Assembly (NCBI GenBank): GCA_903821695.1
Contig: CAIJLX010000067.1
Coordinates: 4,956-68,955 of the forward strand
From: an uncultured Alphaproteobacteria bacterium
GTDB taxonomy: Bacteria; Pseudomonadota; Alphaproteobacteria; Rickettsiales; CAIJLX01
Reading direction: 5' to 3'
DNA: 64,000 nt
Of this stretch, positions 6,971 through 62,700 are shown one piece after another. Position numbers and translations under genes: made by a program. The notes beneath the pieces were generated by a model. It was not told the DNA's origin. It was given only the letters and a program-made list of their open reading frames with translations, and searched no databases. How positions within the stretch are numbered: the first letter of the stretch is position 1; every line of letters begins with the position of its first letter.

Positions 6971-8160
6971 TTTGATACCTTCTTTTTCGTTTCCGATTTT
7001 TGATTTGCCGTCATCGCATCGACAAATTCTTGGAACATATAATGTGTATCATGCGGACCAGGTGATGCTTCGGGGTGGCCTTGCACCGAGAAAGCGACAT
7101 AATTCTTTGCGCGAATACCTTGGATAGTACCGTCGAATAGCGAGCGGTGGGTTACTTCGATGGTGCTTGGCAATTTTTCATCCGAGACAACGAAGCCATG
7201 GTTTTGGCTGGTGATTTCTACTTTTTTCGTACGCAAATCTTGCACCGGATGGTTTGCTCCACGATGACCTTGTTTCATTTTTTCGGTTTTAGCGCCGAGT
7301 GCGAGGCCGAGCATTTGATGACCTAAACAGATACCTAATACTGGTGTTTGTGATTCCAGAATTTCTTGAATCGTTGGAATTGCGTAAACACCCGTTGCAG
7401 CAGGATCGCCGGGGCCGTTGCTTAGGAATACGCCATCTGGTTTTAGTTTCAAAATATCTTTTGCTGAGGTTTCAGCGGGAACAACGGTGACGTTGCAGCC
7501 ATAGCTTACTAACACGCGCAGGATGTTTTGTTTGCAGCCGTAATCGAGAGCGACAACATTATATGTCGCTTTTGCCGGTTTGCTTTTGCCGCCGAGTGCC
7601 CATACTGGTTCTTTCCACTCGCTCGCTTTTTTGCCGGTCACATTTTTCGCGAGGTCTAGGCCTTTCATCGAAGGTTGCGCCTGAATTTCTTTCACCACCG
7701 CATCTGCTTTATACTCGCCGCTCACGATCGCGACATTTTGTGCGCCTTTCGTGCGGATATGGCGGGTGAGTGCTCTGGTATCGATGCCATAAATGCCGGA
7801 GATATTATTTTTCTCGCACCATTGATCGAGCGAGGTTTCGCTGCGGAAGTTCGAAGGAAGTGTTGGTTTCGCACGCACAACCAGGCCACTCGCATGCGGG
7901 GTTTTGCATTCGATATCTTCCTCATTCATGCCGACATTGCCGATATGGGGGAAGGTGAAAGTGATGATTTGGCCGGCATAGGAGGGATCGGTGAGGATTT
8001 CTTGATAGCCGGTCATCGCGGTGTTGAAGCAGATTTCGCCGAAGGTTTTTTCGGATTTTCCGAAGCTGAATCCTTCAAATACTGTTCCGTCCGCCAAGAT
8101 GAGTGCGGCTTTTTTTGGCTCAGCAAGAGCTATCCCCTGATTTTTGGGGGTGTGAATCAT
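6967..8160 (-). CDS. carA: Carbamoyl-phosphate synthase small (glutaminase) subunit
   Basis: 397 aa with the class I amidotransferase motif PVLGICLGHQMLGLALG and a CarA-type N-domain. Confidence 0.96.
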   Translation of the reverse strand: MIHTPKNQGIALAEPKKAALILADGTVFEGFSFGKSEKTFGEICFNTAMTGYQEILTDPSYAGQIITFTFPHIGNVGMNEEDIECKTPHASGLVVRAKPTLPSNFRSETSLDQWCEKNNISGIYGIDTRALTRHIRTKGAQNVAIVSGEYKADAVVKEIQAQPSMKGLDLAKNVTGKKASEWKEPVWALGGKSKPAKATYNVVALDYGCKQNILRVLVSYGCNVTVVPAETSAKDILKLKPDGVFLSNGPGDPAATGVYAIPTIQEILESQTPVLGICLGHQMLGLALGAKTEKMKQGHRGANHPVQDLRTKKVEITSQNHGFVVSDEKLPSTIEVTHRSLFDGTIQGIRAKNYVAFSVQGHPEASPGPHDTHYMFQEFVDAMTANQKSETKKKVSK

Positions 8161-14803: not shown

Positions 14804-16768
14804 TTACGTAGCTACGCGCATCGGCAGAATCACCATCGTATGACCTGCGGCATTGAGGCGGCGCTGTAGAATATACGCGGTCTGGTTGAAGAGTAACTGG
14901 GTAATGAAACCTTCATTATCAAACACCATTTTGACGCCGAAGAACACTACACCAGGGAAATCTTCCGCCACACTATAGGCAAGCTCGCTGAGTTTTTCTA
15001 ACGTATCCGTACCATAACCCAGATACGAGGTGGCAGGTACGCCTTGTTCGGTGCAATAGGCCTCGAAGCGACGTGAGTTTTGGCGAGCGTTGCGGCGCAT
15101 GGTTTGCCAGAGTTGTTCTTCGGAGAAGTTGGTCGAATCCACCTCACCAACGCCGATTAACACGAAGTTGGTGAATACATCGGGGAAGAGTTTTTGAACT
15201 TCTTTCAGGGTATAAATGCCGCTACCGAAATGATCATTCACGATGAGCGCTGCAGTTGGCTTTTTGTAATCCAATAATTTCGCACGGCGCGATCTTCCAT
15301 CGAGGGTTACTTCCTGCGCTTCCTCAATCCGGTCAATCACCTTTTCCACGCGCTTGTAACGTCTGCGGATATAAGCGCTCATGCAAATAACACCAGAAGT
15401 GACCAGCATGGTCATCCAACCACCGGTCGCGAATTTTTCGAACACAGTGACTATCAAAATAAAGGAGCACAACACGAAGCCCTGCGCTGCGACGAATAGT
15501 TTAAACCAGCGTCTGTCCGCGCCTTTTTGTCTGAGCCAATGCCTGCATAACCCAGCCAGCGAAAGGCTGAAGGTGATAAACACGTTAATACTATAAAGTA
15601 CGACAAGCACAGAAACATCGCCGCCTGTAACCAAGATCGCGGTGATAGCCGAAAGGCCCATGAGTATAATGCCGTTTTTTACGACCAGACGGCTGGAAAG
15701 TGAGCTGAAGAAATCCGGCATCCAGCGATCCCTTGCCATGTTTGCCAGAGTGGAAGGACCCGCAAGAAAGCCCGTATTAGCCGCAACTAACAATAGCCCT
15801 GCCTCAAAGAACATCAGCAATGGCAGCATCACCGGCCCCAGCGCGAAATCGCCGATATGCCAGCGGTTCACAATTTTATGGAACACGGAAGCGTTTAACG
15901 TTTGGCCTGCTATTTTTTCTGCATCCCAGAGTAGGTACAGTAGCATGATGCCGGCTGCCATAAAGGCAAGGGAGGAAGCCACAAAAATCATGGTCAGCTT
16001 GCCGGTGCGCACTTTCGGCTCCTGCAGCGCATCCACTTTATTGGAAACGGCTTCCAACCCCGTATAGGTTCCACCGCCGAGAGAGAATGCTCTTAAGAAT
16101 AAGGCGATGACAAAAAACCACCCCATCGAATCGCTTAATTCTTTACTATCCTGAACCGCCTTAGGAATAAGCTCGGAAATACCCTCATGGTGATAGACGA
16201 TACCGTAAATAATCACCACCGCATGGGTAACCATAAAGCCAATAAAAATTGGGACGAGAAGGCGGATAGATTCCTTCATCCCCCGGAGGTTCATAAAGAT
16301 AAGCAAAAATACAACCATAACCTGCAGCCACAGCTTATAACCGCTATATTGGACAGGTAGGAGGCTAAACAACGCATCCGTACCGCTCGCGACAGAAATC
16401 GCGATGGTTAGCACATAATCGATTACCAGTGCACCGCCGGAGACAAGCCCGAAATTAGGCCCCAGCAAGTTAGAAGCAACGCGATAACCGCCGCCGCCAT
16501 TAGGAAAAAGCTCCATCACCTGCATGTAAGCCGCGGAAATCACGAATACGGTGACGGCAGATGCAATTGCCAGATAAATCGCCAATTCGCCATGGTCAGC
16601 AAGCGCCAAGAACGCCTCTTCCGGGCCGTAACAAGCTGAGGAAAGCCCATCCGCGCCAAGGCCAATCCAGGCCATTAATGCCGCAAGGGAAATGTTACGC
16701 CGCGTTGCCTTATCGAAAGGATCGCGTGGGGGACCAAGACAGAAATGCTTAATACTTTTAAGTGTCAT
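14804..16768 (-). CDS. APC-superfamily amino acid/polyamine permease with a cytosolic C-terminal domain
   Basis: 654 aa with about 12 TM helices (GLGADGLSSACYGPEE near the N-terminus) plus a soluble tail of about 180 aa. Confidence 0.8.
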   Translation of the reverse strand: MTLKSIKHFCLGPPRDPFDKATRRNISLAALMAWIGLGADGLSSACYGPEEAFLALADHGELAIYLAIASAVTVFVISAAYMQVMELFPNGGGGYRVASNLLGPNFGLVSGGALVIDYVLTIAISVASGTDALFSLLPVQYSGYKLWLQVMVVFLLIFMNLRGMKESIRLLVPIFIGFMVTHAVVIIYGIVYHHEGISELIPKAVQDSKELSDSMGWFFVIALFLRAFSLGGGTYTGLEAVSNKVDALQEPKVRTGKLTMIFVASSLAFMAAGIMLLYLLWDAEKIAGQTLNASVFHKIVNRWHIGDFALGPVMLPLLMFFEAGLLLVAANTGFLAGPSTLANMARDRWMPDFFSSLSSRLVVKNGIILMGLSAITAILVTGGDVSVLVVLYSINVFITFSLSLAGLCRHWLRQKGADRRWFKLFVAAQGFVLCSFILIVTVFEKFATGGWMTMLVTSGVICMSAYIRRRYKRVEKVIDRIEEAQEVTLDGRSRRAKLLDYKKPTAALIVNDHFGSGIYTLKEVQKLFPDVFTNFVLIGVGEVDSTNFSEEQLWQTMRRNARQNSRRFEAYCTEQGVPATSYLGYGTDTLEKLSELAYSVAEDFPGVVFFGVKMVFDNEGFITQLLFNQTAYILQRRLNAAGHTMVILPMRVAT

Positions 16769-16942
16769 AGCACCGCGTATTTAGGCCGGAAATACGCTAA
16801 AAATCCTAAAGAGGTTTCCCAAAAACACCCATGGCACGGCTCCATGACTTGTTGGGTGGACGAATACGCCCTTGAATTCAAAATTGCAAGCCTCTATTAC
16901 GTAGTAGCTCCCCAGTTGATACATTTAACCTATAGATTTGAT

Positions 16943-18262
16943 ATGAAACGGTTTTTTCTTTTTTTGATGGTTTTTTGTGCGGCGCACTCGGCGCAAGCCG
17001 AGTTACGCATTGATATTACACGCGGAAATGTCAATCCGCTGCCCATTGCACTCCCCGATTTCACCGGCGAAACCCAGCTCGGGGCCGATATTATGCGGGT
17101 TATTTCCGATGATTTAGAGCGCTCTGGCCTGTTTAAACCGATCGATCCACGCTCTTTTGTCGAAAGAATCAAAGATTCCAACCAAGTTCCACGCTTTCCG
17201 GATTGGCAAGGCATAAGCGCCCAGGCTTTAGTGACGGGCGATGTGCGGCGCGCAGCGGATGGCGGTTTGGAAGTGCAATTCCGTTTGTGGGACGTGTTGG
17301 CCGAAAAACAGGTCGCAGGGAAATCTTATACTACGCCCGAAGATAACTGGCGCCGTGTCGGCCATTTGATCGCCGACCAAATTTATAAGCGCCTGACGGG
17401 TGAAAACGGCTATTTCGACTCGCGCATTGTCTATATCGCCGAAAGTGGCAATTTCCGCAAACGTACCAAACGCCTCGCGATTATGGATCAAGATGGTGCT
17501 AACCACATGTTCCTGACCGATGGCGCAGACCTGGTGCTCACCCCACGTTTTGACCCAAACATGCAGCGCATTATCTACCTCTCCTATGAAGGCCGCAAAC
17601 CGAGCGTGCATTTATATGACCTCGAAACCGGCCGTGTTGAACTGCTCGGCAATTTCGACGGCATGAGCTTCGCTCCACGCTTCTCACCAGATGGCCGCAA
17701 AGTGGTGATGACCATCGCCAAGAACGGTAACTCTGAAATTTATGAGATGACCCTCGCTAATCGCCAGATGCGCCAGATCACGAATAACCCAGCAATCGAC
17801 ACCTCGCCCTCCTATTCGCCCGATGGCAAATACATCACCTTTAACTCCGACCGTGGCGGCAGCCAGCAGCTTTATGTGATGAACGCCGATGGCAGCAATG
17901 CCCGCCGCATCAGCTTCGGCGATGGCAAATACGGCACCCCCGTCTGGAGCCCTCGCGGTGACTTAGTCGCCTTCACCAAAATGAAAGGCGGCCGGTTCCA
18001 TATCGGCATTATGCGCCCAGATGGCAGCGGCGAACGTATTTTAACGGATAGCTTCCTAGATGAAGGCCCAACCTGGAGCCCGAACGGTCGCGTGATCATC
18101 TTCACCCGCCAAAAAGAAGGCTACACCAGATCCGACCTCTCCCGCACCTATTCGATCGATTTGACCGGCTACAACCTTCGCGAGGTTATGACTCCGCTGG
18201 ATGCCTCTGATCCAGCCTGGTCGCCATTGCTCGAAAACCCTTGTGCAGGTGGGAAGTGTTAG
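16943..18262 (+). CDS. tolB: Tol-Pal system beta-propeller protein TolB
   Basis: Track ORF 16745-18262. I prefer the ATG at 16943, which gives the signal peptide MKRFFLFLMVFCAAHSAQA. Repeated SPDG/SPxG propeller blades (PRFSPDGRKV, PSYSPDGKYI, PVWSPRGDLV, PTWSPNGRVI). Confidence 0.93.
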   Translation: MKRFFLFLMVFCAAHSAQAELRIDITRGNVNPLPIALPDFTGETQLGADIMRVISDDLERSGLFKPIDPRSFVERIKDSNQVPRFPDWQGISAQALVTGDVRRAADGGLEVQFRLWDVLAEKQVAGKSYTTPEDNWRRVGHLIADQIYKRLTGENGYFDSRIVYIAESGNFRKRTKRLAIMDQDGANHMFLTDGADLVLTPRFDPNMQRIIYLSYEGRKPSVHLYDLETGRVELLGNFDGMSFAPRFSPDGRKVVMTIAKNGNSEIYEMTLANRQMRQITNNPAIDTSPSYSPDGKYITFNSDRGGSQQLYVMNADGSNARRISFGDGKYGTPVWSPRGDLVAFTKMKGGRFHIGIMRPDGSGERILTDSFLDEGPTWSPNGRVIIFTRQKEGYTRSDLSRTYSIDLTGYNLREVMTPLDASDPAWSPLLENPCAGGKC

Positions 18263-40520: not shown

Positions 40521-41084
40521 ATGAAACTGTTTTCCTTAGTGTTAAGCGCAATGTTGGTGTTAAGCGGCTGTGCCCGCCAGATGGGAGCCAATACCTATAC
40601 CAGCGGCTCTGCCGGCGGCGTAGTGCTCGAAGGAACCATTGTTTCGGCCCGCGCTGTGACCATAAAAGATGCTGATAAACTGCAAGATAATGCCCTGGGT
40701 GGCCTTGCTGGCGGCGCTTTAGGTGGCGTTGGCGCAAGCGGCATCGGCAAAGGTAGCGGCAGTGCTGCTGCAACCGTTGGTGGAGCAATCGTCGGCGCGG
40801 TTGCTGGCGCATTGATTCAAGATGAACTCGGCACCAGCCAGGGCATGGAATATATTGTAAAACTGGCCAAAGGCAGCGAAGCACCTGCTGAAAAAACCAG
40901 CTCGGTTCGTTACACCCGCGAAACCACGGTGCAGGACAAAATGCGCAACTCCATCAAAACCCAGAATACGAGTTCTAATTTAATCTCGGTGATCCAGGGC
41001 AAAGATGTAATTTATACTCCCGGTCAGCACGTCTATATCGTCTATTCGGATGATCGACCCCGCATTACCGCTGCCACAAATTAG
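40521..41084 (+). CDS. Glycine-zipper outer-membrane lipoprotein (SlyB/17-kDa antigen-like)
   Basis: Preferred ATG at 40521 with a GAGGGA RBS. Lipobox LVLSGCARQ. Glycine zipper GGLAGGALGGVGASGIGKGSGSAAATVGGAIVGAVAGA. Confidence 0.8.
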   Translation: MKLFSLVLSAMLVLSGCARQMGANTYTSGSAGGVVLEGTIVSARAVTIKDADKLQDNALGGLAGGALGGVGASGIGKGSGSAAATVGGAIVGAVAGALIQDELGTSQGMEYIVKLAKGSEAPAEKTSSVRYTRETTVQDKMRNSIKTQNTSSNLISVIQGKDVIYTPGQHVYIVYSDDRPRITAATN

Positions 41085-42057
41085 GCAGCGTCAACCACAC
41101 TAAAATAGTGTGTTGCAACGGGTTAAAATTATCATCTGAAATTAGGAAAAGATCGCGGGTGCCGTCGCTATTGCGTCGAACATCCATGCCCTCCATATTA
41201 TCGATATCACTACGATGTGTAAAACGCGCCAGCTCTATGGTTTCAAGCACCGCGCCCGGGCGAATATCTTGCCGTTTTATCAACGAAATACGCACTTTTA
41301 TGCCCTCTAACGGCTTGTAACTACGCTCCAATAATGCCACATATTCATTATCCAATATTGCCAATTCCGTAGGCCTAAAACTATCTGTCTTTTTGAGTGC
41401 AATCCGCTCCCATGTTTCCTTTTTGAGATCGACGATATAACCGATGGCATTGCCTTCCGAATCTTTCGCCGTCTCGGTAAGCGTAAACAACGTATCGCGC
41501 GAAAGTTTTGTGATCGCCTCAATGCCGCCATTGGGCTTTACCAGCTGGTCTAACTCTGCCGGTGCAGATAATGTTTTTTCTAGGTTGATCCGCTCTCCTA
41601 ATTCATAAAAACCAAGCCTATGCTTCTGCTCAAACCCAACCACGAAATGATCGCCCTTAAGATGCACCATCCCCTCCGCATCATATTCCTTTTTGGCTGG
41701 CGCTTTTTCTTCCGACCAAAGATTGTCAAAACTCGCCTCCGACAAGGAAATAATTTTATCATCCTTTAAATCCAGCTTCGCCCTGAGTAACCGCCCATCA
41801 TCGCTCAGCGCATAGAGTTTTCCCTTCACCAAATTGAGCGCCGAAAATCCGCCGAAGCGATAGCTCTCACTTTTGAGTTCAACCGCATCTCGATAAATGA
41901 GTTTGCCAACTTTCTGACCAGGATAGAGCGGCTCACCATCTTTTTTTAGCGGATAGGGAAACAGATGCACCTGAAACGGCGTCGGTTCCGGCACCAGCGC
42001 ATCAATCGCCAATGCCGTGAGAGGGAAAAATAAGATAAGAATCAATAGGATACGCAC
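41065..42057 (-). CDS. Secreted protein, phytase-like esterase (PF13449-type) beta-propeller candidate
   Basis: 330 aa with signal peptide MRILLILILFFPLTALA and motifs FGGFSAL...LSDDG, EGM and FLISDDNFNPLQ. Family assignment is from memory. Confidence 0.6.
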   Translation of the reverse strand: MRILLILILFFPLTALAIDALVPEPTPFQVHLFPYPLKKDGEPLYPGQKVGKLIYRDAVELKSESYRFGGFSALNLVKGKLYALSDDGRLLRAKLDLKDDKIISLSEASFDNLWSEEKAPAKKEYDAEGMVHLKGDHFVVGFEQKHRLGFYELGERINLEKTLSAPAELDQLVKPNGGIEAITKLSRDTLFTLTETAKDSEGNAIGYIVDLKKETWERIALKKTDSFRPTELAILDNEYVALLERSYKPLEGIKVRISLIKRQDIRPGAVLETIELARFTHRSDIDNMEGMDVRRNSDGTRDLFLISDDNFNPLQHTILVWLTLPNLWQR

Positions 42058-42142: not shown

Positions 42143-43156
42143 ATGACACAACATACTGCGGATATTGTAATAATTGGGGCCGGACCTGTGGGGCTTTTTG
42201 GTATTTTCGAGGCGGGGATGCTGAAAATGCGCTGCCACGTCGTCGATGCGCTTGAATATAGCGGCGGCCAGTGCACAGCCCTTTACCCCGAAAAACCCAT
42301 CTACGACATTGCCGGTTTCCCGAGCATTCAGGCGGCAGATTTGATCTCTAACCTAGAGCAACAAGCCGAGCCTTTTTCGCCGGTTTATCACTTTAATCAA
42401 CGTGTAGACAAACTTGCCAAAACTGCCGATGGCTGGAGTGTCACCACATCTACCGGCACAAAAATTGATGCAAAAGCCATCGTCATCGCGGCTGGTTGTG
42501 GCGCATTTGGCCCAAACCGTCCGCCGCTTGCAGGGCTTGAGCAATATGAAGGCAAAAGCGTCTTTTATCTCGTCAAACGTCGCGAAGATTTCCGTGGCAA
42601 AAAAGTAGTGATCGCTGGTGGTGGTGACTCCGCTGTCGATTGGGCGATCTCGCTTTCGGAAGTGGCAGAGCGAGTGAGCGTTGTGCATCGCCGCCCTAAA
42701 TTCCGTGCCGCCCCAGAAAGCGAAGCACGCCTAAAAACACTCGCTGATTCCGGTAAAATCGATTTGGTGATTCCGTATCAATTGCATGGCCTCGAAGGCA
42801 ATAACGGCCAGCTCTCTAATGTGATTGTGTCGGATCTTGATAACACAACAAAATCTATGCCAGCCGATATTTTGCTGCCATTCTTTGGCCTTGCGATGGA
42901 GTTAGGGCCGATTGCAGATTGGGGTTTAAACCTCACACAAAATCATATCACCGTGAATCCTGCCACGATGGAAACCAGCGCAGAAGGCATTTATGCGATT
43001 GGTGATATCGCGACTTATGAAGGTAAATTAAAACTCATCGTGTGTGGATTTGCCGAAGGTGCGATGGCGATGCATGCGGCGTATAATCGGGTGCATCCGG
43101 ATAAGGCGCTGCATTTTGAATATTCGACTTCAAAGGGAGTGCCAAACGCCGCATGA
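42143..43156 (+). CDS. fnr: Ferredoxin-NADP+ reductase, thioredoxin-reductase-like type
   Basis: Preferred start MTQHTADIVIIGAGPVGLF. YSGGQCTALYPEKPIYDIAGFP is characteristic of TrxR-like FNR. Second dinucleotide motif VVIAGGGDSAVDWA. Confidence 0.9.
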   Translation: MTQHTADIVIIGAGPVGLFGIFEAGMLKMRCHVVDALEYSGGQCTALYPEKPIYDIAGFPSIQAADLISNLEQQAEPFSPVYHFNQRVDKLAKTADGWSVTTSTGTKIDAKAIVIAAGCGAFGPNRPPLAGLEQYEGKSVFYLVKRREDFRGKKVVIAGGGDSAVDWAISLSEVAERVSVVHRRPKFRAAPESEARLKTLADSGKIDLVIPYQLHGLEGNNGQLSNVIVSDLDNTTKSMPADILLPFFGLAMELGPIADWGLNLTQNHITVNPATMETSAEGIYAIGDIATYEGKLKLIVCGFAEGAMAMHAAYNRVHPDKALHFEYSTSKGVPNAA

Positions 43157-45087
43157 GACGTTTCCTTTTCATCGCACTTTGTTTGACTTTGCCTTTCGCA
43201 GCTTCCGCGCAGATGAAAAGTACGTTTGGTAACGCGTTAGTCGATTCGGCCGATCAAGGTATCGAAGCCCTCGTCACCGCCCAAATCCGCAATGGCAATA
43301 GCGTGAATGTGAAAGGCAACTTCGGAGTGTCGCCACTCATGCGGGCTTCCTATCACGGTTATACTAATGTGATGGATCAATTAATTAGCTTAGGCGCCGA
43401 TGTAAACATGGCAGATGAAGGTGGCGCCACAGCGCTGCATCTCGCCGCGCGGCAGGGCAAAGTTGAGGCCGTTAAATTACTACTTAAATATGATGCCGTG
43501 GTCGATGTCGCCGATGCTGAAGGCTGGACACCGCTGATGCGCGCCGTCGCTGGACAGAAACAGGAGGTGGCGGAAATCTTGTTAAAAGCTGGCTCTAATG
43601 CCCAAACAAAAAATGAATGGGGCGATACGGCGCAGAAATTTGCTGAAAAAATCCCTAATAATGCACCGCTGCTCGAGTTGATGAAACAAACCGTTCCGCA
43701 AGAAAAGAAATTAACCGCAGCGGAAGCAACCCAACGCAATGTGAGCGTGCAAGCGGAAGAAGTATTGCCCAATGACCTTCCACAAGGCGAAAGCATCGCG
43801 ATGCCATTACCCAAAGCAGCCGAAGTGGCCGCTGTTGATTCCGAGCAGCTACAAAAAGAAGAAGCCGATCGTCAAGCATTGTCACAACGCTTAGAAGCTG
43901 AAAAAATCGCACGTGCACGGGCAGATGCCGATCTGCAAGTAGCACTTGCAGCCCGGGAGCAACGTGAAGCAGCAATTCAGGCAGCGGCACGGGTAGAAGA
44001 TAATAGAACGTTAGAAGAAAAACAGATGGCCGAAACGCAAGCCCGGATTGATCTCGAAAAAAAGGCCGTTGCTGTGCTTGAGAAAAAAGCGGCACAACTC
44101 GCACAAGAAAATGCAAAACGTGAAGTAGAACTCGCACAAGCACAAGAAAATGCACGCATCCAAGCTGAACAACAAGCCGCCGCCGAAGCAGCAAAAAAAG
44201 CAGAGCTACTGGCCCAGGCAGAAGTAGAAGCGCGTATCCAAGGCGAAAAACTCGCCGCCGCAGAAGCAGATCAAAAAGCGAAGTTGATAGCGCAGGAAAA
44301 TGCAAAACATCTTGCTGAGCTCGCACAGGCACAGATGGAAGCGCGCATTCAGGCAGAAAAACAAGTAGCCGCGCAAATCGAAAGAAAAACCATGTTACTT
44401 GCACAGGAAAAAACACAGCGTGAGGCGGAGCTAGCGGCACAAGAGGCACGCAAAGCAGCCTTAATTGCACAAGAAAACGAACGCCTTATTGCCCTGCAAA
44501 AAGAAGGTGAGCGTCGCCTGCAAGTCGCTGCAGAAAAACGCAACATGGAGCTGGCATTACAGCAAGAGCAACTCGCCCGCCAAGCCACGGAAGAAAAACT
44601 ACACGCCGAACTGGCACGCCAAAAAAATATTGCCGAGCAGCAGAAGCAGTTTGAGGTGGCCGCTGTCGAGCCACCTAAAGCAGCCGTCACTCCCTTACCG
44701 GCCAGTGATAATATCTTGATCGGCGAAGCGATTGCGGTGCCGGTATCGTCCAATCCACTCATAGTTGCAGCGGCGAACCCTCAGCCTTCCCTGCTCAAAA
44801 TGAACAAAGGGGTCTGGTTACAAGTAGGGCCCTTTATCGAGGAACAGGAGGCCGTGGCCTATTATAACGGGGCGGTTGAGAGCATGACAGACCTGTTGCC
44901 CGCCCGGATGAAAGTGATCACCGCTAACTTTTTGACCGAGAACGCCCCCCAGAATTTCTTGCGGATGGGACCCTATACCACTCAAAAGGTGGCAGAATTA
45001 GCCTGCGGCTCGTTCCGACAGAGCGAACTTTTCTGCGAATATGTGCGGGAAGAAGCGGCTGAAAGATATAACCGCAGACGCCTGTAA
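43153..45087 (+). CDS. Secreted ankyrin-repeat / long coiled-coil / C-terminal SPOR-like domain protein
   Basis: 644 aa. Signal peptide MRRFLFIALCLTLPFAASAQ. ANK repeats (GATALHLAARQGKVEAVKLLLKYDAVVDVADAEGWTPLMRAV). About 330 aa of AQ/E/K-rich heptad-like repeats. The C-terminus VWLQVGPF...FLRMGPYTTQKVAELAC resembles SPOR. Its ATGA overlaps the fnr stop. Confidence 0.85.
   Translation: MRRFLFIALCLTLPFAASAQMKSTFGNALVDSADQGIEALVTAQIRNGNSVNVKGNFGVSPLMRASYHGYTNVMDQLISLGADVNMADEGGATALHLAARQGKVEAVKLLLKYDAVVDVADAEGWTPLMRAVAGQKQEVAEILLKAGSNAQTKNEWGDTAQKFAEKIPNNAPLLELMKQTVPQEKKLTAAEATQRNVSVQAEEVLPNDLPQGESIAMPLPKAAEVAAVDSEQLQKEEADRQALSQRLEAEKIARARADADLQVALAAREQREAAIQAAARVEDNRTLEEKQMAETQARIDLEKKAVAVLEKKAAQLAQENAKREVELAQAQENARIQAEQQAAAEAAKKAELLAQAEVEARIQGEKLAAAEADQKAKLIAQENAKHLAELAQAQMEARIQAEKQVAAQIERKTMLLAQEKTQREAELAAQEARKAALIAQENERLIALQKEGERRLQVAAEKRNMELALQQEQLARQATEEKLHAELARQKNIAEQQKQFEVAAVEPPKAAVTPLPASDNILIGEAIAVPVSSNPLIVAAANPQPSLLKMNKGVWLQVGPFIEEQEAVAYYNGAVESMTDLLPARMKVITANFLTENAPQNFLRMGPYTTQKVAELACGSFRQSELFCEYVREEAAERYNRRRL
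44101..44520 (+). repeat. Diverged in-frame tandem repeats (about 174-189 nt period) inside the ankyrin/coiled-coil gene
   Basis: Units beginning GCACAAGAAAATGCAAAACG (44101), GCGCAGGAAAATGCAAAACA (44290) and GCACAAGAAAACGAACGCC (about 44467) encode the recurring (L/I)AQEN(A/E)(K/R)...AQAQ..ARIQAE blocks. This region generates many spurious ORFs on both strands. Confidence 0.55.
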
Positions 45088-45152: not shown

Positions 45153-46232
45153 ATGAAAAAAACCTGCCTTTTATTACTCACCTCAGCGTTGATTGCCCTT
45201 CCCTCATTGGCAAATGCTGAGTTGTATGCTGGGGTTGGCGGCGGCGTTTTGATTCCACGTGAAGAAACCATCAAAACCACTGCTCAAAGGCAGGACGTAA
45301 GCTTGGGCAAAGGCTGGGGCGCATTGGGCGCCATTGGTTATAAATTTGACAATGGTTTCCGTACTGAACTTGAATTTGGGTTTCGCGATGCAGATATCGA
45401 CCATGTTGCTTCTTCCGCGATTGATGATGGCGGCGAACGCGCTTACAGCGCCATGGTAAACGGCTTATATGATTTTAAAACCGGCACGCTCTTCACGCCT
45501 TATCTCGGCGCAGGCTTGGGCGTTGGCAAAGTGAATTATGATTCTGTGCGCACCATTTCTGGCGGTCAGTTGGATGATAATGCGACCGGCCTTGCAGTTC
45601 AGGGCATTGCAGGGGTGAGCTTGGCGATTAATGAAAGCCTCTCTTTCTTCACCCAATATCAATATCAAAGCATCTTGGATCTCAAAACCTCGACCAGTAA
45701 TGGCCTGAGCGCCAAAAGTGAATATGGTACCAGTTTAATCAGCGCTGGTCTGCGCTGGGAGTTCGCTTTGCCAAAACCAGCGCGCCAGGAACAACTGACA
45801 CCGATTCCACTCTCACCAACAGCAGCTGCACCAGCCGAACTTCCCGAAACGAAAGAAGTAGTGGCTGAGCCGGTAGAAGTGATTGCCGCACCAGCCGTTG
45901 AGAAATATATGGTGTTCTTCGATTTTGATCGCAGCGATTTGACGATCGAAGCGGCAGATATCCTGAAAAAGGTGGTCGATAATGCCAAAGCGGGCAAAGT
46001 GACCTCGATTGAACTGACTGGCCATGCAGACCGTGCAGGTTCAGATGCATATAACATAAAACTTTCAGAGCGCCGGGCAAATGCGGTTAAGAAACAGCTG
46101 ATTCGTTTGGGTCTGCCGGCTGCTGAAATTGATACCGTTGCTAAAGGTGAGCGTCCACCGCTGCTGGTGCAAACGGGCGATGGCGTACGTGAGCCACAAA
46201 ATCGCCGGGTTGAAATCGTTTACGGGAAATAA
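45153..46232 (+). CDS. OmpA-family outer membrane protein (N-terminal beta-barrel plus C-terminal OmpA peptidoglycan-binding domain)
   Basis: 359 aa with signal peptide MKKTCLLLLTSALIALPSLANA, barrel strands and a Pro/Ala linker. The C-terminal LTGHADRAGSDAYNIKLSERRANAVKKQL is the OmpA_C motif. Confidence 0.9.
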   Translation: MKKTCLLLLTSALIALPSLANAELYAGVGGGVLIPREETIKTTAQRQDVSLGKGWGALGAIGYKFDNGFRTELEFGFRDADIDHVASSAIDDGGERAYSAMVNGLYDFKTGTLFTPYLGAGLGVGKVNYDSVRTISGGQLDDNATGLAVQGIAGVSLAINESLSFFTQYQYQSILDLKTSTSNGLSAKSEYGTSLISAGLRWEFALPKPARQEQLTPIPLSPTAAAPAELPETKEVVAEPVEVIAAPAVEKYMVFFDFDRSDLTIEAADILKKVVDNAKAGKVTSIELTGHADRAGSDAYNIKLSERRANAVKKQLIRLGLPAAEIDTVAKGERPPLLVQTGDGVREPQNRRVEIVYGK

Positions 46233-46235
46233 CGC

Positions 46236-46667
46236 CTAACGGCACTGCCGAATTTCGCCGTGATAGGCGAAAGAAATATCATGCAGTTTTTTGTTTTTCT
46301 TCTCCACCCCATCAAACCATAATCGCGCATTATTACAAAAAATCTTGGCGCCTTTTCTGAGAGAACGCGTCATGGATTCATTCGCTAGTTGCGTGATAAA
46401 TTGATTCATTTCCAATTCTGCCGTTGGCCCATAAGACCGCATAAAATAACCACGCATGGTATCTGCATATTGTTTTAGCTGCGGCTGATAATTGGCGATG
46501 AAATAATTATAATGTTCCTGCCCATTACAGCTTAAACCAGCAATCATCAGCTCCGTTTGCAAGGCGCGGACGCGGATGGCTTGCATTTCTGGCGGTTTGG
46601 CGCAGGGTACGGCGAATGCGGACGAGACTTGGAATAATACCACGAAAAACAGGCCGCATTTTCTCAT
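46236..46667 (-). CDS. Secreted hypothetical protein (143 aa, 5 Cys in the mature part by hand count)
   Basis: Signal peptide MRKCGLFFVVLFQVSSAFA. It sits where frr normally follows pyrH. No family recognised. Confidence 0.6.
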   Translation of the reverse strand: MRKCGLFFVVLFQVSSAFAVPCAKPPEMQAIRVRALQTELMIAGLSCNGQEHYNYFIANYQPQLKQYADTMRGYFMRSYGPTAELEMNQFITQLANESMTRSLRKGAKIFCNNARLWFDGVEKKNKKLHDISFAYHGEIRQCR

Positions 46668-46673
46668 GCCAGC

Positions 46674-47390
46674 CTATTTTTCTTCAATAATCGTAAACGT
46701 CCCTTTGCCTTGCAGCACTTGTGCAAATGCGCCTGGCGTGTGAATCGAGAAGACTAAAATCGGAATATTATTTTCACGCGAAAGCGAAATCGCCGCTGCA
46801 TCCATCACCTGTAAATCTTGGGTGAGGACATCTTTATAAGTCAGGCGATCATAACGCGTCGCCGATTTATCTTTCTTAGGATCCGCCGAATATACACCAT
46901 CCACTTGCGTTGCTTTAAGCAGCGCATCACAGCCCATTTCAACCGCGCGCAAGGCAGCAGCCGTATCGGTCGTGAAGAATGGATTGCCTGTTCCTGCAGC
47001 AAAAATGACCACACGGCCTTTTTCCATATGCCGATGTGCACGGCGACGGATATAGGGCTCGCACACGGTCATCATCGGAATCGCGGAAAGTACACGGGTC
47101 GAAACGCCAATCCGCTCCAGCGCATTTTGCATCGCGAGCGCATTCATCACAGTCGCGAGCATGCCCATATAATCCGCGCTCGCACGCTCCATACCGGCTG
47201 CAGCAGCCGAAATACCGCGGAAAATGTTCCCGCCGCCGACAACGACAGAGACTTGTGCGCCTAATGCATGAACGGCTTTGATTTCGGAGGCAATGCGATC
47301 AATGGTCGCTAAATCCTGCCCATATTGTTGATTCCCCATGAGGGCTTCGCCAGAGACTTTGAGCAGGACACGCTTGAATTTGAGAGACAT
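46674..47390 (-). CDS. pyrH: UMP kinase
   Basis: 238 aa with [12 protein letters not shown] and [10 protein letters not shown]. Confidence 0.96.
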
Positions 47391-47457
47391 AACAACGTTA
47401 TAGGCAAGTGTGCGGCGGGTGACAAGTCACAACTTGCCACCCAACCAACAATCCAAT

Positions 47458-48381
47458 TTAGCCGCGAGCAGCTGCTGCTACTTCTTCAGCGAAATTGCTT
47501 TCTTTTTTCTCAACGCCTTCACCCAATACGAAGCGGGAGAAGCCGGTGATGGCAACTGGTGCGCCGATTTCTTTTGCAGAATTTGCAACGAAATCAGAGA
47601 TTTTGGTTTTGCCATCGATTACGAACACTTGCTCCAGCAATACGACTTCTTCGTAGTATTTGCGGATGCGGCCTTCGACCATTTTCTCGATGATATCAGC
47701 CGGTTTGCCGGAAGCTTTAGCTTGGTCGCGGAAGATATTTCTTTCGCGTTCCAATGCATCGCCGCTCACTTCTTTCGTGGTCAACGCATCAGGACGTGCA
47801 GCCGCGATATGCATCGCGATTTGCTTGCCGAGTGCTTCCAGTTTCGCTTGATCGCCAGTGGATTCAACAGCCACCAAAATACCGATTTTACCGAGACCTG
47901 GAGCAACTGCTGCATGCACATAGCTTGCAACAATGCCGTTATTCACGGTGAGTTTCGCAGAGCGACGCAAGGTCATGTTTTCGCCGATTGCAGCAATCAG
48001 GTTAGTTACATCATCAGCAACGGTTGCACCGCTTGCACCTTTAGACGCTTTGAGCGCTTCCACATCGCCATTTACTTTGAGCGCTTGGGTTGCAATTTGG
48101 CGAGCAGCCGCTTGGAACTTCTCGTTACGCGATACGAAATCGGTTTCCGAGTTCAGCTCAATCACTGCGCCGGTTTTGCCTTCAACAGCAACCGCGACCA
48201 AACCTTCAGCCGCAATACGGCCGGATTTTTTCGCTGCGGCCGAGAGGCCTTTTTTGCGCAACCAATCGGTCGCTTCGTCGAAATTACCATTCGCTTCGAC
48301 GAGTGCTTTTTTGCAATCCATCATGCCAGCGCCGCTGGTTTCGCGCAGTTTCTTTACTAATTCTGGGGTGACATCAGCCAT
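47458..48381 (-). CDS. tsf: Translation elongation factor Ts
   Basis: 307 aa. N-terminal UBA-like [38 protein letters not shown]. Confidence 0.97.
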
Positions 48382-55155: not shown

Positions 55156-55283
55156 AAAGTTTTGAAGGTTAATCTGTTGAATCGTTTGCTTTTTCTACTC
55201 CCCTCCTATCCGAAATGCAAACGCAATTCGCGCAAATCGAATTGCTGCTTGAAGAAGGGGGTGGCCTATGGCACTCTCTTGGC

Positions 55284-56816
55284 ATGAAACTCTTGTGGAT
55301 TCTATGCCTTGCTCTCTTTTTGTCCCTGCCTTTAACCCTGGCAGCGCAAAATGCACCGCCACCCGGAGGTGCATATATCTCTATCGTTCCCCAAAACAAA
55401 TATCCTAACGGACAGAATGACCCCAATGTGGCCGGCGAATGCTTGCCGATTAAAAATGGCTGGGTGCCACCTGTTTTTGGCAAAGCCTGCCGGATTTATG
55501 CTCCGGGCAATTTATCCAATGGCAGCAGCGCTAGTAGTAGTGGCAGCAACACGAGTACCAGCGCCAGCACAAGTGCCGGCAGCGGCGCAGGCGCGAGTGG
55601 AAGTGGTAGCAGTAGTGGTGGCGTTGTTTGGAGAAATAGCGCTGCTGTCACGTTTGGTGCTAGCAGCGGCGGGCGGTGGGAACCAAACCCCAATGACAAT
55701 GGTGGTAGTAGCAGTAGTAGCAGCGGAGCAGATACGAGCAGCAGCGGCAGCACCAATAACCCCAATTGCCCAGTTCCCGGCACAGAAGATCCGATCCCTT
55801 GCGATGACAATGAAGAGTGCGCGAAAGATTGCGTGAATGGCACACCAATCTGCCTTGAATATGATGAGAATTGCGGATGCACTAAATGGGAAACGCCGCA
55901 AGATTGCCATTGTAAACCTAAATGCGATATTCCCGATCCGAATTATCCTTTCTGCTGTAAGGTCGCCGATAAATCTGGTTATCCTTGCCTAAAAGTGTGC
56001 ACGCTTCCGAGCGGTGATACAGTCGATATCGAACAAAACCCGCCTATCTGCAGAAAATTTTCTGAATGCTGCTATGGCAAACGTGAGGATGATGGCAGTA
56101 CTCCAAATTGCAGTAACAGTAGCATTCCTAGAAGCCCTAATTGCGATCCGGTCGAAACCGAACCCGGCGATCCGCGGGATTATTGTAAGATGAAGTGTGT
56201 AGATGTGTGCGAAGATAAGCAAGCAGTGCAGCGCACGAAAACTTCAAGCGATATTTTCCCTGAATGCTGTACACCGCCGATTCCTATCTCCATTGCCTGT
56301 GCTTGTTGTCGTGATGGAACCGCCAATAAACCTGCTTCGGATTATTGCGAATATTTCTTCCGTTTCTTTAGTTGTGATGATGCGACTCTTGCGTGCCCGA
56401 GTGATCCATCGCTCAACCAATGTGTGATGACAGTTGATAAAAAGAAGAATTGGGTAGAAGGTGACACCAGCCTGCCAGAATATGACCCGAACCATGATCC
56501 GTATTTGACCTTTGACCCGCGATTTAGCTTTTGCCAGGGTCAATGGAACAACCGTAATTGCCGCTATATCTGTCGTGGCCAAGGTATTTTGACCGGTAAA
56601 AATGCACCAACCATGGGCATCTGGGTGAAGGATTATATTGATAATAGCGGCAAACCGATTGAAAATAATTATGCCCTCGAAGTAGAAGGTAATTGTACAG
56701 ACGATCAAGGCCAGGCAAAGCCTATCCCTTGGCCACCGGGGAATCAGCACCAAGAAAAATGTGGTGACCCGATTAGCAGCAGTGGCAGCAGTGCTAGTAG
56801 CAGTAGCGGCCAATAG
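55284..56816 (+). CDS. Secreted cysteine-rich protein with Ser/Gly-rich tracts, no recognisable family
   Basis: Track ORF 55215-56816. I prefer the ATG at 55284, which gives the signal peptide MKLLWILCLALFLSLPLTLAAQN. There are 38 Cys after the signal peptide (hand count), 36 of them in a ~330-aa core, including the CC doublets FCC, SECC, PECC and ACC. It also has poly-Ser/Gly/Thr linkers and a Ser-rich C-terminus. Confidence 0.8.
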   Translation: MKLLWILCLALFLSLPLTLAAQNAPPPGGAYISIVPQNKYPNGQNDPNVAGECLPIKNGWVPPVFGKACRIYAPGNLSNGSSASSSGSNTSTSASTSAGSGAGASGSGSSSGGVVWRNSAAVTFGASSGGRWEPNPNDNGGSSSSSSGADTSSSGSTNNPNCPVPGTEDPIPCDDNEECAKDCVNGTPICLEYDENCGCTKWETPQDCHCKPKCDIPDPNYPFCCKVADKSGYPCLKVCTLPSGDTVDIEQNPPICRKFSECCYGKREDDGSTPNCSNSSIPRSPNCDPVETEPGDPRDYCKMKCVDVCEDKQAVQRTKTSSDIFPECCTPPIPISIACACCRDGTANKPASDYCEYFFRFFSCDDATLACPSDPSLNQCVMTVDKKKNWVEGDTSLPEYDPNHDPYLTFDPRFSFCQGQWNNRNCRYICRGQGILTGKNAPTMGIWVKDYIDNSGKPIENNYALEVEGNCTDDQGQAKPIPWPPGNQHQEKCGDPISSSGSSASSSSGQ

Positions 56817-60033: not shown

Positions 60034-62700
60034 ATGGATGACCTGATTGGCGAGTTTCTAACGGAGACCAATGAGAGCCTCGGCTTGCTAGATATCGAGC
60101 TCGTGAAGCTCGAAAAAAATCCAGAAGACCAACAAATACTCGGCCTCATTTTCCGTGTGATGCACACAATCAAAGGTACGTGCGGATTTTTAGGTCTGCC
60201 ACGCTTAGAACATGTCGCGCACGCCTCCGAAAACGTGATGGGCAAAATCCGCGATGGAGCAATGACGGCAACACCGGAAGTGATCTCACTGGTGCTCACT
60301 TCGATTGATCGGATTAAAGAATTGATCCAGAAACTGGAGGAATTGGGCAAAGAACCCGAGGGTGATGATACTGAAATTATCAATCTGCTCAATGCGTGTG
60401 CGGAAAGTTGCGGTGGATCGCTTTCTGGTAGTGCGCCACCACCGCCAACGCCAGTGGAAGCGATGCCGATGGATGATGTGGAAACGGATGCGGGTGGGAA
60501 TGTGTCGCTTGAGGAATTGGAGCGGATTTTCCAGAATACGCCGGTGGATGCGGCGATTGCGGCGAATGTAATTGTGCCGGTAAAACCAACACCTAAAAAA
60601 GCACAGCAAGATGCGGTGGCGGAGGGGTTGAAGGCGGTTGAGCAGCATGGTGAGGGCGGCAATGTTTCCGGGCAGAGTATTCGGGTGAATATCGATGTAC
60701 TGGAAAATTTAATGCAGATGGTGAGCGAGTTGGTGCTGACGCGCAATCAGTTGATTCAAATCGCACGCAACCGCAATGACCCGGAATTTATTACGCCGAT
60801 GCAGCGTTTGAGCCACATCACAACTGATCTGCAAGAAGGCGTAATGAAAACACGGATGCAGCCGATTGGTAATGCCTGGGCGAAATTTCCACGGCTGATT
60901 CGTGATCTCGCATTGGAGCTGAAGAAAAAAATTGAGCTGAAAATGTTGGGGGCGGAAACAGAGCTTGATCGGCAAATGCTTGAGATGATTAAAGATCCGC
61001 TGACGCATATGGTGCGTAACTCGGCCGATCATGGCTTAGAAGGGCCGGATGAGCGGCGGGCGGCGGGGAAGAATGAAGTCGGTACGGTGACGCTGAGCGC
61101 CTATCATGAAGGCGGGCATATTCTGATTAAGATTATTGATGATGGCCGTGGGATTAATATTGAGCGGGTGAAGCAGAAGGCACTCGCCAATGGCATCGCA
61201 ACGCAGAGCGAAATTGATCAGATGAGTGAACAGCAAATTTGCCAGTTCATTTTTAAAGCTGGGTTTTCGACGGCGGAAAAAGTGACTTCGGTTTCTGGGC
61301 GTGGTGTTGGGATGGATGTAGTGATTACCAACATCCAAAAAATTGGCGGTTCGGTGGAATTATTTTCGGTGCAGGGCAAGGGCTCCACATTCGTTATTAA
61401 GTTGCCACTCACGCTCGCGATTATGCCGGCGTTGGTGGTGGAATGCTCTAAGCAGCGATTTGCGATTCCACAGATTGGTGTGAGTGAGATTGTTTCGATT
61501 TTTACGGAGGAACCGAAAGATTATGTGATTGAGGAAATCAATGGCTCGAAAGTGCTGCGGCTGCGCGAACATTTATTGCCACTCTTTTCGTTGCAACAAT
61601 TATTGCAATTGCCGGAACAGAGTGCACAGGCAGAAGAATTATTCGTCGTGGTTTGCCATGTCGCTTCTTATGAATTCGGGCTGATTGTCGATCGCGTGTT
61701 TGATACGGAAGAGATTGTGGTGAAGCCGGTCGCGCCGGTGTTGAAGGCGATCGAGGTTTATTCTGGTGCCACGATTTTGGGTGATGGCAGTGTCATCATG
61801 ATTTTGGATCCGAATGGAATTGTAAAAACGGCGGGAATGGCGAATCCTAACGGTACGAAAGATGATGCAGCGAATGAGAAAAAAGGATTTATCGAAGATC
61901 AACTTGTTACATTTCTGGTGTTTAAAGCGGGCGGCAAAACCACAAAATGTGTACCGCTAGAATTGGTTTCGCGGTTGGAGGAAATTAAGGCCGATACGAT
62001 TGAGTGGTCGGGCCATTCGCAAGTGGTGCAATATCGTGGTGATTTGATGCATTTGATTACGCTCGATAGCAATTATACCATTCCTGAAACGGGCATTGTG
62101 CAGGTTGTTGTGTTCTCCGATGAAGGCCGCATTTTAGGGGTGGTGGTAGAGGAAATTCTTGATATCGCCGAAGCCTATATGGAGGTGAAGGGGACGAATG
62201 TGAACACGGGTTCATTGGGCAGCTTGATTATTAATGAGAAGAGCACCGATTTGCTAGATATCGGCCATTTCTTCGCGCAGCATTTTAAAGATTGGCACAA
62301 AGCGGAAGCGGAAAAAGAATCCGACCAATCTGCAACACATGTGTTGTTAATTGATGACAGCCCGTTCTTCCGCAAATTTATGAAGCCGATTTTAACTGCT
62401 GCGAAATATCGGGTGACAACGGCGGAAAGTGCCATTCAGGCGGTGGAATGGATTGAAGGCGGATTTACCTGCAACGCCATTATCACCGATATCGATATGC
62501 CGGAAATGGATGGCATCGAGTTCCTGCAAAAATTCCGTAGCATGGGCAAACAGACGCCGGTGGTGGCACTTAGCTCATTTTCGAATGATGAAATTTTGAT
62601 GAAAACGGATGATGTGAAATTTGACGGCTATGTGTCGAAAGCCAATCGCGATGCGTTGGTTGCGACGTTGGGTAAAATATTACAGGCGGAGACGGTATGA
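60034..62700 (+). CDS. cheA: Chemotaxis histidine kinase CheA, hybrid form (Hpt, dimerisation/HATPase, two CheW-like domains, C-terminal receiver)
   Basis: 888 aa. Hpt motif FRVMHTIKGTCGFLGL, HATPase G-boxes (DDGRGI, GRGVGMD), two CheW-like segments, and a receiver VLLIDDSPFFR...IITDIDMPEMDG...S..K. Confidence 0.93.
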   Translation: MDDLIGEFLTETNESLGLLDIELVKLEKNPEDQQILGLIFRVMHTIKGTCGFLGLPRLEHVAHASENVMGKIRDGAMTATPEVISLVLTSIDRIKELIQKLEELGKEPEGDDTEIINLLNACAESCGGSLSGSAPPPPTPVEAMPMDDVETDAGGNVSLEELERIFQNTPVDAAIAANVIVPVKPTPKKAQQDAVAEGLKAVEQHGEGGNVSGQSIRVNIDVLENLMQMVSELVLTRNQLIQIARNRNDPEFITPMQRLSHITTDLQEGVMKTRMQPIGNAWAKFPRLIRDLALELKKKIELKMLGAETELDRQMLEMIKDPLTHMVRNSADHGLEGPDERRAAGKNEVGTVTLSAYHEGGHILIKIIDDGRGINIERVKQKALANGIATQSEIDQMSEQQICQFIFKAGFSTAEKVTSVSGRGVGMDVVITNIQKIGGSVELFSVQGKGSTFVIKLPLTLAIMPALVVECSKQRFAIPQIGVSEIVSIFTEEPKDYVIEEINGSKVLRLREHLLPLFSLQQLLQLPEQSAQAEELFVVVCHVASYEFGLIVDRVFDTEEIVVKPVAPVLKAIEVYSGATILGDGSVIMILDPNGIVKTAGMANPNGTKDDAANEKKGFIEDQLVTFLVFKAGGKTTKCVPLELVSRLEEIKADTIEWSGHSQVVQYRGDLMHLITLDSNYTIPETGIVQVVVFSDEGRILGVVVEEILDIAEAYMEVKGTNVNTGSLGSLIINEKSTDLLDIGHFFAQHFKDWHKAEAEKESDQSATHVLLIDDSPFFRKFMKPILTAAKYRVTTAESAIQAVEWIEGGFTCNAIITDIDMPEMDGIEFLQKFRSMGKQTPVVALSSFSNDEILMKTDDVKFDGYVSKANRDALVATLGKILQAETV

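Follow-up and report, generated by a model that had tools for sequence, protein, structure and literature searches.

What would ankyrin repeats do inside a bacterial envelope, and what would hold them there? This question is raised by one gene in a 64,000-nucleotide stretch of DNA, hereafter the window, from an uncultured alphaproteobacterium placed by GTDB in the Rickettsiales (lineage CAIJLX01; assembly GCA_903821695.1, contig CAIJLX010000067.1). The open reading frame (ORF) at 43153..45087 on the plus strand runs uninterrupted for 644 amino acids, is conserved in relatives, and joins a signal peptide, ankyrin (ANK) repeats, a long helical linker and a SPOR-like C-terminus, a domain order which the original prediction had read from the letters and which was borne out by Pfam, AlphaFold and profile comparison. 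When a bacterium, above all one of the Rickettsiales, encodes an ankyrin protein, the usual assumption is that it is a host effector. SPOR domains are the main known route by which proteins reach amidase-processed septal peptidoglycan, and the modules that SPOR proteins carry define events at the closing septum. The explanation that we favour overall, with a probability of roughly 0.55, is that the protein serves as a Sec-exported, peptidoglycan-tethered periplasmic adaptor. Its parts lie along the gene as follows.

43153..43209, plus strand: predicted Sec-type signal peptide, residues 1-19 (MRRFLFIALCLTLPFAASA, cleavage before Q), from inspection and hydropathy
43225..43686, plus strand: ankyrin domain, residues 25-178, with N-cap, three canonical repeats and C-cap (Pfam, AlphaFold, Foldseek)
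43687..43842, plus strand: low-confidence linker, residues 179-230, with a VLPxDLP motif (AlphaFold predicted local distance difference test, pLDDT, <50)
43843..44652, plus strand: Ala/Glu/Gln-rich alpha-helical spacer, residues 231-500 (two AlphaFold helices, 231-368 and 376-500, separated by a break, 369-375)
44707..44751, plus strand: conserved linear motif, residues 519-533 (DNILIGEAIAVPVSS), with the family consensus G-x-V-x-V-A-E-A-I-R-V-P-L-S
44803..45057, plus strand: predicted divergent SPOR domain, residues 551-635, with beta1 VWLQVGPF, beta3 NFLRMGPY and the conserved Cys pair C618/C628

An ankyrin domain with an export signal

By inspection and hydropathy, the N-terminus follows the n-, h- and c-region layout of a signal peptide (MRR, then FLFIALCLTLPFAA, then SA before Q), in which a positively charged n-region precedes a hydrophobic core of 14 residues and A-S-A fills positions -3 to -1 before Q20, near which the precursor would be cleaved. 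The same layout is kept in all six close homologs. Furthermore, 41 of 46 relatives with an ANK domain have an equivalent hydrophobic segment abutting the ANK N-cap, and the other five look like truncated gene calls. Periplasmic targeting, as originally proposed, is a sensible reading of this layout and its conservation. Two other membrane attachments were rejected: a lipoprotein, as I-A-L, the residues ahead of Cys 10, do not form a lipobox on sequence inspection, and a second transmembrane segment at residues 521-540 (hydropathy 1.65), which holds Glu, two Pro, Ser-Ser and Asn.

The ankyrin domain exceeds the Pfam gathering threshold and forms the stacked helix-turn-helix solenoid typical of the fold. 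Pfam Ank_2 matched with 2e-36 and 124.8 bits (threshold 27.3), Ank with 5e-19 and 67.7 bits, and Ank_5 with 63.3 bits; AlphaFold built five helix pairs over residues 28-178 at pLDDT 82-93, which Foldseek overlaid on five-repeat N3C designed ankyrin repeat proteins (DARPins) with a TM-score (TM) of 0.91-0.95 and a root-mean-square deviation (rmsd) of ~2 Å. The three to four repeats counted in the original prediction are accordingly ankyrin repeats, their exact number being three canonical ones plus two caps. This is also the best-conserved part of the family, 22 relatives being 36-77 % identical to the window copy and 17 columns invariant in an alignment of 23 members.

A divergent SPOR domain preceded by a conserved motif

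Profile comparison and structure modelling point strongly to a divergent SPOR domain at the C-terminus, whose homology to SPOR is supported indirectly but strongly and which fails the strict Pfam test. The homologous domain matches Pfam SPOR in 15 of 18 aligned sequences (the window protein and 17 relatives; best 3.2e-8). Likewise, when hhalign aligned a profile of the window clade alone with one built from 24 canonical SPOR copies found elsewhere in the family (23 matching Pfam SPOR, best 2.8e-15), the whole domain was covered (97.85 %, E 6.5e-13, 78 columns). The SPOR-like C-terminus of the original prediction is upheld by these two comparisons, although not by the Pfam score of the window sequence itself, which stays under 21 bits. 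Within the close clade the SPOR core is 60-79 % identical. A PDB sequence search with the C-terminal profile retrieved no SPOR domain other than that of CwlC (E 0.099, among antibody noise).

Starting from the 18-sequence alignment, AlphaFold predicted a beta-alpha-beta-beta-alpha-beta fold with a core pLDDT of 75-89, its elements being E31-38, H41-54, E62-68, E77-85, H88-99 and E104-108 in the numbering of a C-terminal fragment whose residue 1 is residue 524 of the protein. Foldseek matched this model to the SPOR domain of RlpA bound to denuded glycan (6i09_A; prob 1.00, TM 0.67, rmsd 3.2 Å), which has the highest target-normalised TM among the 50 matches listed. In chained alignments, Q557 in beta1 falls on FtsN Q251 and RlpA Q270, and the beta1 Gln is one of the very few side chains critical for glycan binding (PMC6895207). 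The window clade has kept both this Gln and a beta3 Arg without exception. As contacts between SPOR domains and glycan are mostly made by the backbone (PMC6895207), divergence in sequence is not strong evidence against function. Finally, C618 and C628 are invariant in all 18 relatives aligned, consistent with a disulfide in the oxidising periplasm; such an invariant pair fits an oxidising compartment and thereby supports export.

Ahead of the domain lies a short motif that is widespread in the family. None of the 18 aligned relatives departs from its E, A, V and P, and 131 of 150 family representatives have the core EA[IV]xVP (GEAIAVP at residues 524-530 of the window copy); among these 131 the flanking V residues at -4 and -2 and the L at +6 are strongly conserved as well. 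It is found 23-59 residues (median 40) upstream of the SPOR domain associated with it. The stretch is strand-like in sequence and was left disordered by AlphaFold (pLDDT <50); in its family form, VxVAEAIRVPLS, it could be a docking motif.

A probable helical spacer, without coiled-coil periodicity

The original prediction had described the middle of the protein as a repetitive coiled coil of ~330 residues, a description that did not hold up. AlphaFold placed two helices there at pLDDT 70-84, ~270 residues in total, and residues 236-510 consist of 25 % Ala, 16 % Glu, 13 % Gln, 10 % Leu, 8 % Lys and 8 % Arg with only 2 Pro and 2 Gly. Thus the long alpha-helix of a canonical coiled coil is predicted, and its heptad periodicity is absent: a/d occupancy in the best register did not exceed that of composition-matched shuffles, the Fourier spectrum was unremarkable at period 3.5 (p = 0.71), and hydrophobic autocorrelation had z = -0.3 to -1.4 at lag 7 and was depleted at lag 3 (z = -2.6 to -3.3). 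Repetition is weak at the protein level, where a 63-residue autocorrelation barely rose above the shuffled maximum, and Tandem Repeats Finder reported no DNA tandem repeat within the gene. What stands out instead are opposite-charge pairs at i/i+4, 29 of them versus 16.1 +/- 3.4 in shuffles, a count reached in 0 of 1000. The region therefore looks like a salt-bridge-stabilised single helix or helical spacer, as far as composition and charge pattern can tell.

Such a region recalls TolA domain II and the single-alpha-helix (ER/K-type) spacers, which likewise have a long Ala- and charge-rich helix with an i/i+4 excess and no heptad core; unlike them, the window region is Gln-rich, matches no PDB sequence and is divided into two helices of ~130 residues. 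Measured from LPxDLP to EA[IV]xVP, the whole linker spans 196-314 residues in the close clade, whereas distant family members have instead a Pro/Lys/Glu-rich linker of 200-560 residues, which is probably disordered. Since both length and composition vary among relatives, the middle region behaves as a spacer. Searches with the middle-region linker matched no PDB chain and no Pfam family. Between the ANK domain and the helix, the VLPxDLP motif (residues 204-210; 43762-43782) forms a conserved island, with E202, V204, L205, P206, D208, L209 and P210 invariant in the six close homologs.

The part of the gene that encodes the helical linker is also overlapped by long ORFs (<=271 residues) on the minus strand and in other frames between 43377 and 44762, for instance 43655..44470 on the minus strand. 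They coincide with an A-over-T skew of up to 0.53 inside the gene and are read as artefacts because of the Ala/Glu/Gln codon bias.

A family of ANK-SPOR proteins

The closest homologs (P0001-P0005) are of metagenomic origin, share the full architecture and are 44-59 % identical by BLASTP; together with P0121 and the window protein they make up what we call the window clade. In the window protein and P0001-P0005 a single SPOR domain closes the chain and none stands at the N-terminus, and more distant ANK-bearing homologs contain one to three SPOR domains recognised by Pfam. When representative proteins were searched exhaustively with the C-terminal profile, 2512 matched at E<=1e-3, of which 191 reached E<=1e-30. 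Three SPOR stretches are found in most of the 150 best matches; 43 of these 150 begin with an ANK domain homologous to that of the window protein, and in the other 107 the signal peptide is followed by SPOR. A word-indexed homolog search with the same profile gave a single match.

In GTDB genomes, scanning with the single protein sequence found no relative, and an ANK family profile was needed. With it, a scan of one genome per GTDB species yielded 80 loci, and ANK and SPOR occurred together in 30 of the best 32, so that at least 30 species genomes, counted among the best 32 of the 80 loci, have the combination. By record label they are distributed as follows.

22 loci: Rickettsiales, Rickettsiaceae or Midichloriaceae metagenome-assembled genomes (MAGs), ANK+SPOR
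6 loci: Alphaproteobacteria, ANK+SPOR
1 locus: Proteobacteria, ANK+SPOR
1 locus: Hyphomicrobiales, ANK+SPOR

The window protein displays the family hallmark, EA[IV]xVP situated 23-59 residues before a SPOR domain with two invariant Cys, and lacks the canonical SPOR domains that flank the motif-associated one elsewhere in the family. Judged by these sequence features, the ANK+SPOR proteins are an offshoot of a larger three-SPOR family, and the window protein is a reduced member in which, of the three SPOR domains, just the middle one next to the motif is left. Relatives from the three-SPOR and ANK-SPOR family, such as P0007, P0016 and P0086 ('hypothetical protein EB060_04610'), have a homologous ANK domain (36-57 % identity among distant members), the EAIxVP motif and a motif-associated SPOR domain with the same Cys pair. 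Most of them differ in having one or two extra canonical SPOR domains and Pro/Lys/Glu-rich linkers, as opposed to the single SPOR domain and Ala/Glu/Gln-rich helical linker of the window clade.

We found no characterised member of this family, no paper on the combination of SPOR and ankyrin in full-text literature searches, and no record in an exact-sequence look-up of the 644-residue protein. The architecture, originally called unusual, thus recurs in at least 30 species genomes and in 43 of 150 representatives, none of them characterised: it is recurrent, real and moderately unusual, and the family is sizeable and uncharacterised.

A proposed wall-tethered periplasmic adaptor

In the model that we propose, Sec export would deliver the protein to the periplasm, where the C-terminal SPOR domain would anchor it on peptidoglycan, probably on amidase-denuded glycan strands, which are enriched at the division septum. 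The N-terminal ANK domain with its five repeats would bind a conserved periplasmic partner, likeliest a protein and possibly a cell-wall hydrolase or a component of the envelope or divisome, and the ~270-residue Ala/Glu/Gln-rich helical spacer would set the distance from anchor to ANK domain. The analysis itself shows which domains are present, the export signal, membership of the family and its distribution; that the protein binds glycan, goes to the septum and has a partner of this kind we infer from the architecture and its conservation. The conserved ANK and SPOR core, joined by a variable linker, is the pattern expected of two functional modules connected by a spacer.

Some bacterial ankyrin proteins of the periplasm, all of them cited in the RARP-1 preprint, offer precedents. 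For instance, Bd3460 of Bdellovibrio bacteriovorus reportedly binds the DD-endopeptidases of its producer in the periplasm and so protects the producer's wall (PMC4686830). In Rickettsia parkeri, the periplasmic protein RARP-1 co-purifies with Pal as well as with components of the type IV secretion system (T4SS; RARP-1 preprint), and AnkB of P. aeruginosa is periplasmic as cited in the same preprint. By analogy, these three proteins favour a periplasmic ANK domain acting on the envelope.

A more specific version of the adaptor model would make the protein a lineage-specific septal adaptor, in which SPOR reads amidase-processed septal glycan, ANK captures or inhibits a hydrolase or a Tol-Pal or divisome component, and VxVAEAIRVPLS docks to an energised machine of the envelope by strand augmentation, much like a TonB box or the N-terminus of TolB. 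This extension is speculative and, in our estimation, quite unlikely; if true, such a septal adaptor of Rickettsiales-like Alphaproteobacteria would be of a new type, built from a eukaryote-like repeat. Of the two roles mentioned in the original prediction, a division-site scaffold is plausible, and for a surface display device we found no support.

A homolog of TolB is encoded elsewhere in the window (16745-18262, plus strand), and is a candidate envelope partner for the ANK domain or the conserved motif.

Gene neighbourhood

The genes on either side are the following.

42143..43156, plus strand: thioredoxin-reductase-type ferredoxin-NADP reductase (fnr), upstream, starting at an internal ATG at 42143
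45153..46232, plus strand: outer-membrane beta-barrel with a C-terminal OmpA-type peptidoglycan-binding domain, downstream

The upstream product matches the ferredoxin-NADP reductase 5ygq_A in the PDB (E 7e-107) and Pfam Pyr_redox_2, and the downstream one Pfam OMP_b-brl (7e-15) and OmpA (2e-18). As the original prediction stated, the ATG of the ANK-SPOR gene shares four nucleotides (ATGA, GCATGAGA) with the fnr stop codon, and the identical overlap is kept in the three closest loci (L001-L003). These loci also preserve the order phytase-like gene (minus strand), fnr, ANK-SPOR and ompA-like gene (all plus strand). Neither the overlap nor the adjoining ompA-like gene extends to the wider family. 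A functional link to fnr was rejected, as the overlap is real but restricted to the clade and FNR is cytoplasmic; with the coupling limited to the closest loci, it provides no functional lead. In one distant relative the ANK-SPOR gene is flanked instead by genes of polyhydroxybutyrate (PHB) metabolism.

The phytase-like esterase gene (41065-42057, minus strand; PF13449, 1.5e-37) is divergent from fnr and encodes a hydrophobic signal-like N-terminus, and its position is kept in L001-L003.

Weighing the adaptor model and its alternatives

Several observations weigh against a wall-tethered adaptor. With Pfam SPOR (PF05036) the window sequence reached only 15.4-15.5 bits (E 0.02), below the gathering score of 21, and this sub-threshold match, for which the last 94-141 residues alone gave 14.7-15.5 bits, spans only beta3 and alpha2; a Pfam scan of the whole protein gave no SPOR match. 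The E value of the Foldseek match to 6i09_A was only 0.015, and generic ferredoxin-like folds scored similarly. At the position of FtsN R285 and RlpA R309, chained alignments place F602, with R604 two residues further on the same strand face. Clustering of all ORFs from 34 related loci returned no neighbour gene common to the family, hence no pointer to a partner, the recurring clusters being antisense ORF artefacts of Ala/Pro-rich linkers. Lastly, a fully extended helical region would measure ~40 nm at 1.5 Å per residue, more than the typical width of a periplasm, and the helices may therefore fold as a hairpin, form an oligomer or lie along the wall.

Four alternatives are less supported than the adaptor model. 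The first, a specific sub-case of it, is that the protein acts in inhibition of, or immunity to, a peptidoglycan hydrolase, the ANK domain sequestering a self-made enzyme and the SPOR domain placing the protection on the cell's own wall. The reported complex of Bd3460 with DD-endopeptidases is a precedent (PMC4686830), and the strong conservation of the ANK domain implies a fixed partner. However, neither the window nor any of the 34 related loci has a hydrolase gene next to the ANK-SPOR gene, and the relationship to Bd3460 does not go beyond the generic ANK consensus in sequence. We consider this sub-case unlikely.

Second, the protein might be a structural tether of the envelope, with SPOR holding peptidoglycan, ANK holding a protein of the outer membrane, for example the OmpA-like barrel encoded next to it, and the helix serving as a ruler of periplasmic width, as Lpp and TolA domain II are. 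The length of the helical spacer, its richness in i/i+4 salt bridges and the OmpA-type barrel gene directly downstream in the window and L001-L003 would all suit such a tether, yet that neighbour is not conserved outside the close clade, and the Pro/Lys/Glu-rich linkers of distant members, variable from 200 to 560 residues, argue that a fixed ruler is no feature of the family. We thus regard a tether as quite unlikely.

A third reading, which we find more improbable still, retains the SPOR fold and removes its function: a degenerate domain that does not bind glycan and acts in protein-protein contact or dimerisation, leaving a soluble periplasmic ANK factor. It would account for the Pfam score below threshold, the Phe in place of the canonical beta3 Arg, and the loss in the window clade of two canonical SPOR copies that relatives keep. 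Nevertheless, every member of the clade still has the beta1 Gln and a beta3 Arg, and backbone-made glycan contacts render low sequence conservation normal (PMC6895207).

The last alternative, a host-directed effector whose ANK domain is delivered to a eukaryotic cell with the remainder as carrier, as in many Rickettsiales, Legionella and Coxiella, is very improbable: although the relatives derive mostly from MAGs labelled Rickettsiales and the nearest NCBIfam ANK models are Dot/Icm effectors (far below cutoffs), the classical Sec signal, the predicted peptidoglycan-binding domain and the conserved Cys pair speak against it, RARP-1, formerly held to be secreted, proved periplasmic (RARP-1 preprint), and the CheA, oligopeptide-binding protein, CarB and CobT of the window are unlike a strongly reduced endosymbiont genome.

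Relation to known envelope proteins

As a Sec-exported adaptor tethered to peptidoglycan, the window protein resembles, judging from its domains, a SPOR-anchored envelope protein with a cargo module that the literature searched does not describe for this class. Like FtsN, DamX, DedD and RlpA of E. coli and RgsS of S. meliloti, it ends in a SPOR domain with an RNP-like beta-alpha-beta-beta-alpha-beta fold (predicted here) and a beta1 Gln, placed after a long low-complexity or helical periplasmic linker, and its glycan-binding anchor would likewise position another module. That module is ankyrin, unlike the membrane anchor and divisome-activating peptide of FtsN or the lytic transglycosylase of RlpA. 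Further differences are that the window protein would be soluble and exported by a signal peptide, whereas the SPOR envelope proteins are bitopic or lipoproteins, and that its SPOR sequence falls below the Pfam threshold. The Cys pair is also placed differently, at alpha2 and beta4 in the window protein and at C252 and C312 in FtsN (PMC6895207).

RARP-1 combines, as the window protein does, a Sec signal, a long non-globular middle and ankyrin repeats in a periplasmic protein of a Rickettsiales member; its order is reversed (signal, disordered region, C-terminal ANK) and it has no SPOR domain. Bd3460 is a small protein that consists of ANK repeats, has no known wall anchor and is encoded beside its endopeptidase target. 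The window gene has fnr, the OmpA-like barrel and the phytase-like gene as neighbours, and no endopeptidase gene. What the two proteins share is that each is an exported ankyrin protein of the periplasm with a role, putative for the window protein, in cell-wall biology (for Bd3460, PMC4686830).

The ANK-SPOR proteins constitute a strongly conserved ANK family, predicted to be wall-anchored, in dozens of uncultured Rickettsiales-like lineages, and would join AnkB, Bd3460 and RARP-1 in indicating that some bacterial ANK proteins act on their own envelope. For genome surveys this is a caution that ANK proteins are not automatically effectors; the practical value is modest until the ANK partner is identified.

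Other features of the window

Other genes of the window include carB, ileS, a class I lysS, cheA, tolB, gatA, cobT and a gene for an oligopeptide-binding protein, and the gene content looks like an ordinary chromosomal region. EF-Ts of the window is 100 % identical to a protein from a 76-kb metagenomic contig and just 66-68 % identical to its nearest named matches, from a Rickettsiales MAG and from Azospirillum, which places the source as a deep-branching uncultured alphaproteobacterium. The CheA-type chemotaxis kinase (60034-62700, plus strand) has a fused receiver domain. A 533-residue ORF at 55215-56816 (plus strand) has no Pfam match at E<=1e-10, and an Rfam scan of the window gave no match.

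Downstream of the ompA-like gene, 46236-46667 (minus strand) encodes a 143-residue protein whose hydrophobic N-terminus resembles a signal sequence and which matched neither Pfam nor NCBIfam; an equally long gene occupies the equivalent position beside pyrH in L001, L002 and L086. The last of these is a metagenomic scaffold with 94-96 % DNA identity to the window, and in a strain with 96 % DNA identity the ANK-SPOR copy is truncated. Relative to the window, L086 has two insertions: one of ~0.5 kb between tsf and pyrH (5243-5774, versus window 47391-47458) with a 141-residue ORF, and one of ~1.25 kb between pyrH and the 143-residue gene (6492-7745, versus window 46669-46675) with a 390-residue ORF that has no Pfam match. 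Both represent strain-level variation, and may have originated from mobile DNA.

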